42,388 nt of DNA from Deltaproteobacteria bacterium RIFCSPLOWO2_02_FULL_50_16 (GCA_001798715.1 MGSF01000076.1:1-42388); one strand, 5' to 3'. Positions 1 to 23,993 are shown, counted from the first letter of the stretch. Translations and numbers: made by a program. Notes: generated by a model from the letters alone, not told the origin.

Positions 1-4
1 ACAC
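1..4 (-). CDS. Probable start of elongation factor Tu (gene runs off the left edge)
   Basis: Minus strand reads AAAAGGAGGTTTACC-GTG: strong SD (11-16) and GTG at 4-2. It lies downstream of the Thr-Tyr-Gly-Thr tRNA cluster that classically precedes tufB. Identity is from synteny only. Confidence 0.55.
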
Positions 5-118
5 GGTAAACCTCCTTTTAGAGCCTGTTAGTCTCAAGTCCGTTGAAGGACTTGAGGCGTTACAGGCTTTTATCCCGACTCGTTTCAAAGAAACGAATCG
101 GGGTTAAAAATTAAATTG

Positions 119-222
119 TTACTAACAGTCCCGAAATTGTATAGACATTTGGGAACTGTTAGTATTACAGGACCGGCTGTTAGCCCTATTGGGCTGTCCA
201 TATTATTTCGGTCCTGTTAATA
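119..222. repeat. 104-bp double-hairpin (MITE-like) repeat, copy 1
   Basis: Direct repeat of 1526-1629 with about 5 mismatches. It is made of two TA-bounded inverted repeats: TACTAACAGT...ACTGTTAGTA and TATTACAGGACCG...CGGTCCTGTTAATA. Confidence 0.9.
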
Positions 223-258
223 ATTTAATTCTTCATCTCGTCCCAAATCTATTTTTCT

Positions 259-455
259 GCACCGTTTCGCTCCCGCGAAACGGTGCGGCGACGTACAGTC
301 TCCGCAAACTTAACTCTTATCTTGGTACCAACTCGCTCCCTTCGCGCCTCTGGCGCTTCAGGGTCTCAGCGCTCTGCGCTGGGATCGTTCGTTGGTACAG
401 CACTTTTCTACACTTTGCGGCGACGTACAGTCTCCGCCAAGTGTGAAAAGTGCTG
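259..455. repeat. Hairpin array in the 3' trailer of tRNA-Thr(GGT)
   Basis: Stems at 259-286 (GCACCGTTTCGC/GCGAAACGGTGC), 284-306, 325-398 (branched) and 398-455. GCGGCGACGTACAGTCTCCGC occurs at both 285-305 and 417-437. Confidence 0.85.
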
Positions 456-528
456 AGCCGACACGCGGAATCGAACCGCGGACCTTCTCCTTACCATGGA
501 GATGCTCTGCCAACTGAGCTATGTCGGC
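456..528 (-). tRNA. thrT: tRNA-Thr(GGT)
   Basis: Reverse complement GCCGACATAGCTCAGTTGGCAGAGCATCTCCATGGTAAGGAGAAGGTCCGCGGTTCGATTCCGCGTGTCGGCT folds as a cloverleaf with anticodon GGT and TTCGA T-loop. No encoded CCA. Confidence 0.97.
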
Positions 529-1020
529 GCAAATTAATCTCCTTGCCCCATCTCGTTTCACGAGACGAAACCAGCTCTCGTACGATTTGCGTGCGTTCTC
601 CGAAGGAGAACCCTATAACACCCACTTCCTTACACTGTCCCGTGAAGCCGTTTGGTTTCGACGAGTTCAACGAGGAAGAAACCATTACGGATTCACGCAC
701 CGTTTCGCCCATCGCGCCTCGTATCGCATCTCTGATGCTTCAAATGCACTTGAGCACTGCGAAAGTGCTGGCGCTTCGACGTAGTCGTCCCAGCACTCTG
801 TGCTGGGGTTGTTCAACGGTGCCAGCTTCCGTAAGATTTGCGTGCGTTCTCCGAAGGAGAACCCTATAATACCCACTTCCTTACACTGTCCCGCAAAGCG
901 GGACGCCGGCGTAAAGCCGTCGCAAATTGATCTCCTCGCCCCGTCTCGTGAAACGAGACGGGACCAGCTCTCGTACGATTTGCGAGGACGCAGGATCCTC
1001 GCAAATCAACGGAAGCTGGG
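529..1020. repeat. Nested hairpin/repeat mosaic between tRNA-Gly and tRNA-Thr(GGT)
   Basis: Internal repeats: 528-591 vs 921-984; 584-642 vs 835-893 (59 nt, 1 mismatch); 636-708 vs 1653-1725 (73 nt, 2 mismatches). Segments 822-842, 906-927 and 1007-1019 together reproduce hairpin 1741-1796. Confidence 0.9.
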
Positions 1021-1093
1021 AGCGGGAGACGAGGTTCGAACTCGCGACCCTCAGCTTGGAAGGCTGATGCTCTACCAACTGAGCTACTCCCGC
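1021..1093 (-). tRNA. glyT: tRNA-Gly(TCC)
   Basis: Reverse complement GCGGGAGTAGCTCAGTTGGTAGAGCATCAGCCTTCCAAGCTGAGGGTCGCGAGTTCGAACCTCGTCTCCCGCT; anticodon TCC. Followed by CCC rather than CCA. Confidence 0.97.
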
Positions 1094-1330
1094 AAATCCG
1101 TTCGGTTTCTGCAAGCCTAGCGTCCCGAAGTCAGAGACTTCAGGACCTGATGGGCCAGAGGCCCTGATCCGAGCAAGAAACCGTTACGGATTTGCGTCCC
1201 ACATGCTTCATAATTACAAGCATGTGGGACGCGTGGCCTTCTTCGCGGCACCGATTCGCTCCCGCGAAACGGGGCCTTATTCCGTACGCCTTGCGCCGAC
1301 GTAAAGTCGTCGCAAGGCTACGGAATAAGG
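1094..1330. repeat. Hairpin array between tRNA-Tyr and tRNA-Gly
   Basis: Stems at 1091-1196 (with two inner AGA-loop hairpins), 1194-1232, 1248-1275 and 1275-1330. Confidence 0.85.
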
Positions 1331-1413
1331 TGGAGGGAGAAGGATTCGAACCTTCGAAGGCATACGCCGGCAGATTTACAGTCTGCTCCCTTTGGCCTCT
1401 CGGGCATCCCTCC
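1331..1413 (-). tRNA. tyrU: tRNA-Tyr(GTA)
   Basis: Reverse complement GGAGGGATGCCCGAGAGGCCAAAGGGAGCAGACTGTAAATCTGCCGGCGTATGCCTTCGAAGGTTCGAATCCTTCTCCCTCCA; anticodon GTA, long variable arm. Followed by CCT. Confidence 0.97.
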
Positions 1414-1525
1414 AGCAGTTCGTTAGTTTTGCGGCGATCTTGCATCGACGCAAAACTTATGAACTGCTGGTCCTCAGCCGAAGGCTGAGGGCCCGGAAGT
1501 CAAACGAATCACTCCCCACCAGATC

Positions 1526-1629
1526 TTACTAACAGTCTCAAAATTGTATAGACATTTGGGGACTGTCAGTATTACAGGACCGGCTGTTAGCCCTATCGGG
1601 CTGTCCATATTATTTCGGTCCTGTTAATA
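1526..1629. repeat. 104-bp double-hairpin (MITE-like) repeat, copy 2
   Basis: Direct repeat of 119-222. Confidence 0.9.
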
Positions 1630-1657
1630 GTTAACTTTTAAAAAAACTTTTTTGTCC

Positions 1658-1796
1658 CGTGAAGCCGTTTGGTTTCGACGAGTTCAACGAAGAAAAAACC
1701 ATTACGGATTCACGCACCGTTTCGCTTCCGCGAAACGGTGCCAGCTTCCGTAAGATTTGCGCCGGCGTAAAGCCGTCGCAAATCAACGGAAGCTGG
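1658..1796. repeat. Three abutting hairpins in the 3' trailer of tRNA-Thr(TGT)
   Basis: Stems at 1658-1714, 1714-1741 and 1741-1796, each sharing one nucleotide with the next. Homologous to 641-1019. Confidence 0.9.
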
Positions 1797-1797
1797 G

Positions 1798-1870
1798 AGC
1801 CGACGCCCGGAATCGAACCGGGGACCTACTGATTACAAATCAGTCGCTCTACCTACTGAGCTACATCGGC
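1798..1870 (-). tRNA. thrU: tRNA-Thr(TGT)
   Basis: Reverse complement GCCGATGTAGCTCAGTAGGTAGAGCGACTGATTTGTAATCAGTAGGTCCCCGGTTCGATTCCGGGCGTCGGCT; anticodon TGT. Followed by CCC. Confidence 0.97.
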
Positions 1871-2041
1871 GTGCATCATTTTCCAAATTACTGCACCGCC
1901 TCCTGAAAAAAAATAAACTCTTCCCTCGCGACCGGATCGTTAAAAAAACAAATTGCATCACAGCGACCTAGTCCATTGGAATTATTACAGTCTTCGAGCT
2001 TTGGTAAACCCTTTAATTTTGAAAATCGAAAAAGCCGTGGA

Positions 2042-17517: not shown

Positions 17518-17525
17518 ACACACTT

Positions 17526-17626
17526 TATGGTTTATTAACTTTCAGTGAGTACAGCTTAAATGACCAACCATAAGTATTTCTAACTTTGAATGAGCACATG
17601 AGTACTCATTCAAAGTTGAAATGCTA
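17526..17626. repeat. Dispersed AT-rich MITE-like palindromic element, copy 2
   Basis: Homologous to 2860-2976. Second half is the hairpin AACTTTGAATGAG...CTCATTCAAAGTT. Confidence 0.8.
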
Positions 17627-17760
17627 TCTCAGGACATCTTTAAGGAGACCTTTTCAGAACTCTTGGAATCGGCCTTGTCCCTCCTTTGTCGGGACCGCGA
17701 AAGGAAGATTTGATTGTATTTTTCACCTCCGGTGAAAGGCTGGCCGGAAGTAGCAACCCC

Positions 17761-23209: not shown

Positions 23210-23920
23210 ATGACAAATCCCTTATCTCTTGGATGGATGATGATCGCACTTTTTTTTCTTCAATCGTGTTCCCATATCGCCCAAAATTTTCCCTCCTATC
23301 CCGTAAATCAGGAAAATATTGATGATCTCCTCAAAGCCACCACGGACGCTTATCACCTGGCCGAAAAGGTCAAGGCCCGTGGCGATCAAATGTTGGTCGC
23401 CAAAAAAGGGATGCGCTATGCCGATCTCTGCCTCCAAAAAAATAAGTCCCTGCCCGACTGTCATTACTATAAGGCCTTAAACACGGGCCTTTATTATGAG
23501 GCCCGCGTCGTGGGCTATCACAAGGGTCTCAAGATTATCGTGGAGGAGGCCCAAAAGGTAATCGATCTGGATCCTTCGTACGATTATGGTGGAGGCTACC
23601 GAGTTCTTGGGCGCTTGTATGCCAAAATACCGGCCTTTGCCGTCGGCAAAACAGCTGTCAGAAGGGATCTTGACAAATCGATTGATTATCTCCAAAAGGC
23701 CATCACGATCGCGCCTCATTATCCGGAAAATTATCTCTTCCTCGCGGATTCCCTCTATGAATCCAACAGACTGAAAGAGGCCTTAAAAATCCTTCACCAA
23801 ATGTGGTCCCATCCCCTCCAACCAGAATGGAGACCCATGATGTCCCAATGGAGGAGGGAGGGAGACAGGCTCTTAAAGGCCATCCACAAATCCATCCCTC
23901 TCCCTATTATAGTTTATTAA
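23210..23920 (+). CDS. TPR-like lipoprotein
   Basis: Lipobox-like LQSC after a hydrophobic stretch; helical repeats (GYRVLGRLY, YLQKAITIAP, YLFLADSL). Confidence 0.75.
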   Translation: MTNPLSLGWMMIALFFLQSCSHIAQNFPSYPVNQENIDDLLKATTDAYHLAEKVKARGDQMLVAKKGMRYADLCLQKNKSLPDCHYYKALNTGLYYEARVVGYHKGLKIIVEEAQKVIDLDPSYDYGGGYRVLGRLYAKIPAFAVGKTAVRRDLDKSIDYLQKAITIAPHYPENYLFLADSLYESNRLKEALKILHQMWSHPLQPEWRPMMSQWRREGDRLLKAIHKSIPLPIIVY

Positions 23921-23993
23921 GGTAGGGATGGCCCCTTACCTTTATGAATATAATGAGGAGAGGGGCTAAAGAAAAAAGTGAGGACAATTCATC

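Follow-up and report, generated by a model that had tools for sequence, protein, structure and literature searches.

Small palindromic DNA in the long spacers of a Thr-Tyr-Gly-Thr tRNA operon and a 48-nt element located in hairpin loops

The contig MGSF01000076.1 of Deltaproteobacteria bacterium RIFCSPLOWO2_02_FULL_50_16 (GCA_001798715.1) was analyzed over 42,388 nt (1-42388), referred to here as the window, and its positions 1-1900 were found to carry four tRNA genes on the minus strand, in the transcription order Thr(TGT), Tyr, Gly(TCC), Thr(GGT), with spacers built mostly of hairpins. The explanation that we favor, and consider probable, is that this is the usual Thr-Tyr-Gly-Thr-(tuf) operon, whose spacers would have been enlarged several-fold through the build-up of at least three kinds of small palindromic DNA and then by duplications within the locus and by recombination among arms that resemble each other. 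The first kind would be a conventional TA-flanked MITE (miniature inverted-repeat transposable element) of ~100 nt, present in two copies. The second, a 48-nt mini-element with three copies and an interrupted one, would integrate without target duplication in short hairpin loops at T^CT or, given an ambiguity of one letter, equally at TC^T. The third would be the long and short hairpins at the ends of tRNA and transfer-messenger RNA (tmRNA) genes, kept foldable in the transcript as a processing or 3'-protection signal and not as a terminator. Because the mini-element carries such loops itself, it would nest in its own kind and lengthen stems from the inside, and the spacers would tolerate the build-up because they are presumably removed at tRNA maturation.

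The spacers measured 382, 235, 490 and 454 nt, close to the 385, 240, 490 and 450 nt estimated in an initial annotation made from the sequence alone, which had also described them as mostly hairpins and listed 23 modules. Each of these modules was folded at its exact coordinates and compared with 100 dinucleotide shuffles (60 for each spacer). Closed hairpins, in which the first base pairs with the last, were obtained for 21 of the 23 modules, and the other two (163-222 and 1527-1629) were hairpins with a few unpaired end bases; the z-scores of the modules were -2.2 to -9.9 and those of the spacers -12.8, -9.5, -12.6 and -11.7, with 67-78% of the bases paired, which bears out the description. 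Neighboring modules abut or overlap by 1-3 nt at 16 of 26 junctions (manual count from the listed coordinates), and the single-base overlaps that had been noted at 398, 697, 822, 1275, 1714 and 1741 are real and arise because both neighbors close at the shared base. The whole genome contains 267 perfect hairpins with a stem of at least 9 bp, six of which lie in window 1-2000, the second among the 2-kb bins of the genome; the most hairpin-dense bin holds two tRNA-Arg genes (G000 C45:51400-52300, G000 being this genome). In a seed-and-extend hairpin census, strong hairpins in crude non-coding DNA were enriched near tRNA genes (46 of 130, vs a share of 10.4%). No dominant motif emerged from a tally of internal loops across all strong hairpins, and in an Rfam scan of the locus tRNA alone reached the gathering threshold, sub-threshold hairpin look-alikes appearing under an E-value threshold. 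Six spurious-looking open frames of 85-139 codons, on both strands, overlap the hairpin array in window 1-1900 and pose a risk for automatic annotation; loci of this type break assemblies and give rise to false open frames.

A 48-nt unit in the loops of other hairpins

The mini-element is a unit of 47-48 nt in which a conserved linker joins a 5-bp hairpin, looped by TCT, to a 9-bp hairpin whose loop is TCT(G). A covariance model of this unit, termed R1, gave 69 matches in the genome and also recognized the unit in 8 of the 92 remaining genomes of the class, from several of its families, with at most 11 copies each. The stems covary, since 88.8% of the cells were paired, 12 of 14 pairs had changes in both partners, and none of 500 shuffles attained the observed values. 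The presence of the copies in natural populations was followed in Logan contigs from the public runs X1, X2, X3 and X5 (groundwater and soil metagenomes; the X2 and X3 figures are identical and may be one data set). The stretch occurs in 17 public runs, and no RNA run is listed for it. The operon contains the following copies:

338-384, plus strand: mini-element in the loop of hairpin 325-398 (R1, 61.6 bits); the flanks refold around the junction
720-767, plus strand: mini-element in the 3-nt (TCT) loop of the 5-bp hairpin of an older copy (R1, 51.5 bits); joint 719->768 in four runs, filled contig 679-797 in X1
708-815, plus strand: the older mini-element copy, interrupted by 720-767 and itself within hairpin 697-822 (nhmmer matches to 7 other loci)
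1124-1171, minus strand: mini-element of reversed orientation within long hairpin 1091-1196, which adjoins the tRNA-Gly 5' end (R1, 61.7 bits)

Natural populations are polymorphic for copy 720-767, which is skipped in contigs of the four runs, the filled form being found in X1 as well. The 719->768 joint shows no target duplication and has an ambiguity of one letter. Three modules of the locus are skipped in this way by population contigs (joints 118->221, 719->768 and 1526->1628), and the module-skipping forms join the same unique flanks, which indicates that these flanks are truly adjacent. Other joints, such as 528->1019, 1077->1329 and 1094/1095->1330, were set aside because they connect conserved tRNA letters and probably derive from other organisms.

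The sites occupied by the mini-element have a common context. Of the copies, 27 begin with CG or CT; 21 of these are preceded by T and 14 are followed by CT. The rejoined flanks were then judged by a strict criterion (junction in a loop of at most 6 nt, hairpin of at least 4 bp, -8 kcal/mol or better), which replaced a loose one passed by 1034 of 3000 random sites. The junction fell in such a loop at 11 of 17 distinct-flank sites, 9 of which were also T^C (manual tally), vs 260 of 5000 random sites (5.2%) in a loop and 17 of 5000 (0.34%) in a loop and at T^C. The apical loop of the 125-nt element MITE-4 is occupied by a mini-element in three copies and uninterrupted in 17, and the T^CT context was present in three of the five copies examined in other genomes, once within the loop of another copy. 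Three identical 48-nt copies were located at unlinked sites on contigs C9, C13 and C46.

The copies are found near RNA genes and within protein-coding genes as well. For 15 of the 69 the nearest tRNA or tmRNA gene is at most 600 nt away, vs 10.4% of crude non-coding DNA. An enrichment beside tRNA genes, which the initial annotation had proposed to check, holds for strong hairpins but not for seven larger repeat families of the genome (4 of 141 loci within 600 nt). Open frames of at least 300 codons harbor 23 of the 69. In the genes for ClpB (G000 C65:25271-27946; L245) and for a thiolase, acetyl-CoA acetyltransferase (G000 C56:15683-16912; L246), an exact insertion of 16 residues coincides with the mini-element when the proteins are compared with 4d2q_A and 6bn2_A, respectively, and both genes are otherwise intact and align from end to end. 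Two or three units of 47-48 nt, in tandem or nested, were also observed in long open frames of 390-896 codons (candidate genes) at G000 C13:21593-21699, C46:34256-34350 and C63:15952-16130. Copies in both orientations occur inside one transcription unit, and the orientation agreed with the sign of the local GC skew in 30 of 62 copies (median |skew| 0.09), that is, there was no replication-strand bias.

Movement of this unit, as of MITE-1 below, is supported indirectly, by its dispersal, by the occurrence of filled as well as empty sites and by the contigs from populations, and the direction of the event would be insertion rather than precise loss. As a tentative proposal, the 48-nt unit could be a minimal self-targeting transposon, for which an enzyme, possibly a Y1 HUH enzyme common in the class, would recognize C-TCT-G loops both as ends and as target and would cut C^T in single-stranded loops. 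If this proposal is true, the unit nests in itself, grows hairpins from the inside, colonizes tRNA spacers and other palindromes, and invades essential genes as an in-frame addition of 16 residues, and the hairpins at tRNA and tmRNA ends are its seed structures. The way in which the smallest palindromic repeats move is rarely known, and the mini-element makes the loop-directed integration of an element of less than 50 nt directly testable; by this route spacers, palindromes and proteins could gain sequence simply. A narrow literature search found neither loop-inserted elements of less than 50 nt nor hairpin-tiled tRNA operons, which is not a claim of their absence.

MITE-1 and the search for a mobilizing enzyme

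Modules 120-164 and 163-222 and their twin 1527-1629 are copies of a single two-hairpin element of ~100 nt, MITE-1, which is non-coding and multi-copy, with 21 loci in the genome at 80-100% identity. TA stands on both sides of all 20 complete copies listed, and the ends (~16 nt) are inverted, with 13 of 16 matches (by reading of copies). The two copies of the operon are:

119-220, plus strand: MITE-1 copy 1 (hairpins 120-164 and 163-222), in the center of an AT-rich palindrome with arms 99-121 and 218-240; contigs of four runs join 118->221
1527-1627, plus strand: MITE-1 copy 2; the empty form appears to retain one TA; joint 1526->1628, which skips 101 nt with two ambiguous letters, in four runs

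Both joints occur at the depth of the organism. The joint 1526->1628, with its two ambiguous letters, fits the empty site expected of a TA duplication, and the TA flanks point to a putative TA-specific cut-and-paste enzyme and not to HUH chemistry; conceivably, TA could also be a one-sided target. No parent insertion sequence (IS) with MITE-1 ends was recovered, all the end matches in the assembly being short copies, and its absence is not established because the assembly is 92% complete.

At least seven such repeat families are present in the genome, accounting for 189 repeated segments and 20.9 kb in total. A 74-nt palindromic element occupies the identical internal TAG in two MITE-1 copies and also interrupts seven copies of another MITE. 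The window contains further repeats at 2860-2979, 17525-17627 and 23894-23975, two of which belong to a family of ~103-120 nt (8-9 loci) and one of which is a palindromic element of 74-78 nt that nests in other MITEs. A family of ~150 nt with at least 12 loci (e.g. G000 C46:7176-7227, C72:3288-3339 and C56:2136-2187) has a hairpin stem that is wholly different among the copies and conserved flanks. Some MITE-4 and MITE-6 copies (G000 C41:14850-14998, C67:10634-10781, C12:11329-11533 and C49:5949-6136) are ~26 nt longer, the additional letters building one more small hairpin out of the host sequence beside it, with an 8-nt repeat on its flanks; these extra hairpins look more like the product of fold-back copying than of transposition.

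The statement of the initial annotation that the window encodes no mobilizing enzyme agrees with our finding that transposases are missing among the window proteins, the rest of the window coding for housekeeping proteins. Family searches of the assembly returned no match for DDE_3, rve, OrfB_IS605 (TnpB), IS110 or RVT_1/reverse transcriptase. One IS4-family transposase gene lies at a contig edge, and its ends are unrelated to MITE-1. One Y1 gene was identified (G000 C87:3926-4990; L001 1400-2465), whose best NCBIfam match is the 'REP-associated tyrosine transposase' (72.6 bits, cut-off 80) and whose product has a DnaA_C-like C-terminus. Its 32-nt inverted terminal repeats occur solely at its own two ends, no window hairpin flanks it, and it is bracketed by a direct duplication of ~225 bp of the end of the neighboring open frame, beside a 125-nt MITE. 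Relatives of this gene were found in 69 of 93 genomes of the class, and across the 93 genomes they were not associated with the mini-element: G040 and G091 have the element with no Y1 homologue at E<=1e-10, and many genomes lacking it have homologues at E<1e-60.

These results bear on the mechanism originally proposed for the whole array, according to which a Y1 HUH enzyme, of the REP-associated (RAYT) or the IS200/IS605 type, would move the hairpins as single-stranded DNA in the manner of repetitive extragenic palindromes (REP) and of their hairpin-forming doublets (REPIN), targeting the foot or the inside of stems. The traits of the mini-element allow an enzyme of the HUH type, as it shows no target duplication, has two hairpins, is located in single-stranded loops, and has a junction compatible with C^T, the CT dinucleotide being needed for cleavage of single-stranded DNA by E. 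coli TnpA-REP according to the excerpted text of PMC3333891; moreover, the Y1 gene of this genome is RAYT-like and has relatives in 69 of the 93 genomes. Nevertheless, the Y1 gene is unsupported as the mobilizer because the repeats do not flank it, do not co-occur with it, and show no replication-strand bias. TnpB was not found in the assembly, and MITE-1 is TA-flanked. The search for a TnpA-Y1/RAYT or reverse-transcriptase gene flanked by the same hairpins thus ended with one unflanked Y1 gene and no reverse-transcriptase match, and the mechanism as proposed for the whole array appears unlikely. Of the two proposed insertion sites, the inside of stems is backed by the 48-nt family (copy 720-767 and the loop context), whereas no filled/empty pair was found for the foot.

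Hairpins at tRNA ends, local duplicates and assembly

In the host genome a strong hairpin lies within ~3 nt of the 3' end in 25 of 38 tRNA and tmRNA genes, at the 5' end in 12 of 38, and at both ends in 9. Seventeen of the 3'-end hairpins are formed by a long hairpin of 52-60 nt followed directly by a shorter one of ~28 nt, and some of the others are ordinary terminators (by reading). The long and short hairpins of the tRNA flanks form most of the tiling of the operon. The tRNA genes and their flanking hairpins are:

1796-1870, minus strand: tRNA-Thr (TGT), first operon gene (ARAGORN; Rfam RF00005, 75.1 bits)
1329-1413, minus strand: tRNA-Tyr (GTA) (ARAGORN, Rfam)
1019-1093, minus strand: tRNA-Gly (TCC) (ARAGORN, Rfam)
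455-528, minus strand: tRNA-Thr (GGT), last tRNA ahead of the contig end (ARAGORN, Rfam)
1741-1796, minus strand: type-A long hairpin abutting the tRNA-Thr(TGT) 3' end (R2, 75.9 bits)
1275-1330, minus strand: type-A long hairpin abutting the tRNA-Tyr 3' end (fold, R2)
964-1019, minus strand: type-A long hairpin abutting the tRNA-Gly 3' end, with a 3' arm that can be matched to another 5' arm, at 822-842, as well (module 822-1019) (fold, R2)
398-455, minus strand: type-A long hairpin abutting the tRNA-Thr(GGT) 3' end (fold, R2)
1412-1470, plus strand: type-A long hairpin, inverted, abutting the tRNA-Tyr 5' end (R2, 55.7 bits on the plus strand vs 33.3 on the minus strand)
1714-1741, no strand assigned: 28-nt short hairpin after the long one, with sisters at 259-286 and 1248-1275 and a relative at ~935-967 (repeat family D9, fold)
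528-591, no strand assigned: hairpin abutting the tRNA-Thr(GGT) 5' end, with a diverged copy at 921-984 (repeat family D8, fold)

The model of the type-A hairpin, R2, was trained on 11 loci and found only these training loci in the genome, 10 of the 11 abutting a tRNA or tmRNA end. In its stems 89.5% of the cells were paired and 17 of 23 pairs had changed on both sides, and in nine cases a distance of 14-17 nt separates the inner 23-nt hairpin from the end of the tRNA. G·U pairs were more numerous in the sense than in the antisense strand, with 41 vs 15 in 17 long-plus-short trailers (manual tally) and 64 vs 24 in 25 strongly folded trailers. The first 60 nt of the trailer folded at -25 kcal/mol or better in 20 of 36 tRNAs of this genome, and in 1 of 16, 2 of 20, 1 of 10 and 0 of 9 in four relatives. 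A hairpin of this type abuts tRNA-Phe in G007 and tRNA-Leu(CAG) in G057, and in G032 it follows a duplicated tRNA-Leu(TAA) 3' end. In this last genome (L257 1480-1780), tRNA-Leu(TAA) is followed, after ~130 nt, by a repetition of its final ~17 nt and then by the long and short trailer hairpins, and from its sequence this stretch resembles a small insertion located at the 3' end of the tRNA. On contig C45 the 3' part of tRNA-Arg(CCT) and two trailer hairpins are duplicated downstream of tRNA-Arg(CCG), and the upstream hairpins incorporate the 5' acceptor strand of each tRNA-Arg, with matching changes.

The flank hairpins most likely represent an older, structure-constrained feature of the tRNA transcript that was multiplied in this lineage. 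Given that in this genome they were located at tRNA or tmRNA genes for 10 of 11 loci and nowhere else, that they show the G·U bias and that the same tRNA bears them in distant relatives, a constrained transcript feature fits at least as well as a free-moving element. These hairpins may spread by targeted insertion or by being copied along with tRNA 3' ends, and the latter is suggested by C45 and C14, where partial tRNA 3' ends have been duplicated along with the trailers. The mobility that had been claimed for the modules in general is supported for MITE-1 (21 loci) and the 48-nt unit (69 matches), but the bulk of the tRNA-flank hairpins look constrained by the transcript. As possible intrinsic terminators the hairpins of the operon were rejected, since no GC-rich hairpin with a T-run and no other terminator-like site was found in 1-2100 on either strand. 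The occurrence of strong hairpins at two thirds of the tRNA genes of this lineage could bear on 3'-end maturation.

A more far-reaching explanation would take the spacers altogether as a functional, structure-constrained RNA of the pre-tRNA/tuf transcript, in which repetition would result from selection and local duplication and mobility would play no part. It would account for the covariation of the flank hairpins, the excess of G·U in the sense strand, the orientation-specific R2 scores, the constant position of the inner 23-nt hairpin, and the same type of hairpin after tRNA genes in three distant relatives, and the lack of terminator tails is compatible with read-through to tuf. It does not account for the three modules skipped in population contigs, for two families found at 21 and 69 places, coding genes included, or for mini-elements in both orientations in one transcription unit; in addition, such trailers are missing from most relatives and Rfam matches only the tRNAs. 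We regard this explanation as decidedly unlikely for the spacers as a whole.

Our preferred reading, the build-up of several kinds of small palindromes, also includes local duplication. Apart from the 97% duplicate listed below, self-comparison revealed that 571-648 matches 822-899, 815-842 matches 1734-1761, 999-1023 matches 1776-1800, and 284-305 matches 416-437, and the 198-nt 'hairpin' 822-1019 consists of two trailer-hairpin arms separated by other modules. The remaining modules and sites of the locus are:

636-708, no strand assigned: local duplicate of 1653-1725 (97%; self-comparison)
595-648, minus strand: member of 'F5', a dispersed family of small hairpins, repeated at 846-899 (6 matches at other places in the genome)
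22-102, no strand assigned: two hairpins (22-68 and 74-102), leader ahead of tuf (fold; no copy found outside the locus)
1194-1232, no strand assigned: perfect 15-bp hairpin (fold; no copy found outside the locus, as also for 1469-1493)
1-20, minus strand: stretch resembling a ribosome-binding site and potential tuf start codon, GTG, at the edge of the contig (inferred from sequence)
1981-2008, minus strand: sigma-70-like promoter match, the sole one in 1-2100, ~110 nt upstream of tRNA-Thr(TGT) (consensus match, weak: 1 found vs 1.2 expected)

When the modules were checked for copies outside the locus, MITE-1, the 48-nt unit and F5 were among those that had them, and none was found for 22-102, 1194-1232 or 1469-1493. 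An origin of all the hairpins in place, by template switching, fold-back copying or unequal recombination with zero transposition, would be in keeping with the numerous duplicated stretches and shuffled arms of the locus, with the MITE-4 and MITE-6 copies that gained a hairpin from adjacent host letters and an 8-nt flanking repeat (by reading), and with the tRNA 3' ends duplicated on C45 and C14. Nevertheless, it fails for the near-identical copies at unlinked sites on C9, C13 and C46, for the constant length of 47-48 nt, and for the copies in other genomes of the class and those in frame in clpB and the thiolase gene, and it is therefore very improbable.

In relatives tuf lies directly downstream of tRNA-Thr(GGT), and in the window the contig stops at the stretch resembling a ribosome-binding site. 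EF-Tu was not found in the assembly in a search at E<=1e-100, and the contig probably breaks at tuf because the relatives have two tuf copies. Searching with the neighboring rlmB-like gene disclosed no close relative above 46% identity in the collection used. In G001 (L017 849-1445) the Tyr, Gly and Thr tRNAs have no spacers and a 290-nt fold-back lies downstream of tRNA-Thr(TGT), and in G004 (L018 683-870) a duplicated tRNA-Thr 3' end brackets a hairpin-bearing stretch of ~100 nt.

The window contig is C76 of a 90-contig draft (1.73 Mb, 49% G+C, rated 92% complete). Exact contig pieces at the depth of the organism were retrieved from the independent runs for 1-118, 276-427, 416-508, 493-613, 679-797, 768-869, 1064-1172, 1368-1528, 1692-1789 and 1797-2400. 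The chance that the array is an artefact of misthreaded repeats in a metagenome-assembled contig is negligible, since these ten pieces together span most module junctions, even though the draft is fragmented, the contig ends at tuf, none of the listed contigs spans the whole region, bin 1201-1280 was uncovered in the four runs, and bin 881-960 had little cover; the assembly is thereby backed, piece by piece, over most, not all, of the array.

Several observations weigh against the preferred reading. The loop-context sites on C9, C13 and C46 share similar flanks and are therefore not independent, the subtype of mini-element that starts with CC was in a loop context at only 4 of 15 distinct sites (strict criterion, manual tally), and the stem around a mini-element could sometimes belong to one larger structured unit instead of a pre-existing hairpin. 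The joints derive from contigs and not from raw reads, with the intervening sequence recorded as not known for most of them, and the joint 118->221 skips 102 nt with zero ambiguity, missing a clean TA duplication by one letter. In the 92%-complete assembly neither an autonomous partner nor an enzyme was found. As for the transcript, the four trailers of the window had a G·U count of only 8 sense vs 5 antisense, a mutation bias linked to transcription could account for the G·U asymmetry, and we infer, from sequence, both the processing of the transcript and any role of the hairpins as RNA.

Comparison with known palindromic elements

The E. coli thrU-tyrU-glyT-thrT-tufB operon has the same order and anticodons of the tRNAs, followed by tuf. 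This order and these anticodons are shared by the locus studied here, and the synteny is also kept in relatives; in contrast, its spacers of 235-490 nt differ from those of ~10-130 nt at 10 distant loci with rlmB-tRNA synteny, and the inter-tRNA distances are 0-434 nt in relatives of the same class.

Minimal elements derived from IS200/IS605 have two hairpins, cause no duplication and retain a short sequence 5' of the element. The mini-element resembles them in the lack of target duplication (719->768, one ambiguous letter) and in the T that precedes 21 of the 27 copies of the CG/CT type, and differs in the lack of a replication-strand bias (30 of 62), in that no TnpB was found, and in its two hairpins, which lie far nearer the ends. 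MITE-1 shares with TA-duplicating MITEs, as the excerpts of PMC3184786 and PMC10969869 describe them, the short non-coding body, the inverted ends, the TA flanks, the dispersal (21 loci) and, apparently, an empty site with one TA, whereas a transposase partner sharing its ends was not found and its body consists of two tandem hairpins.

With REP, bacterial interspersed mosaic elements (BIME) and REPIN, in so far as the excerpts of PMC3333891, PMC2817692 and PMC3116915 cover them, the present array has in common short covarying palindromes in intergenic mosaics, a RAYT-like Y1 gene and a possible C^T junction. Unlike in those systems, the repeats are missing from the flanks of the Y1 gene, 23 of 69 mini-elements lie in open frames of at least 300 codons and the family is thus not extragenic, and copies sit in the loops of other hairpins. 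The 69 copies share a 5' stretch, the linker, the TCT loops and covarying stems, and no equivalent of the 5' tetranucleotide GTAG was established. Integration directed at a palindromic repeat is also a property of IS1397, ISKpn1, IS621 and ISPpu9 in the excerpted accounts of PMC1525189 and PMC3184786, but these are full ISs with their own transposase, some with 3-bp repeats, whereas the mini-element has 48 nt, is non-coding and causes no duplication.

The Rickettsia palindromic elements (RPE), as presented in the excerpt of PMC10969869, are likewise palindromes found both in intergenic regions and in frame in unrelated housekeeping genes, as in ClpB and the thiolase here (16 extra residues). 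In that excerpt the RPEs have ~150 bp and belong to Rickettsia, and the element described here has 47-48 nt and a defined loop context and occurs in an unrelated groundwater lineage, whose prolyl-tRNA synthetase (ProRS) is nearest to those of Nitrospirota and Desulfobacterota metagenome-assembled genomes (56-59%). The 48-nt unit hence shares traits with MITEs, with REP and BIME, with the ISs that target REP sequences and with RPEs, and fails at least one defining feature of each.

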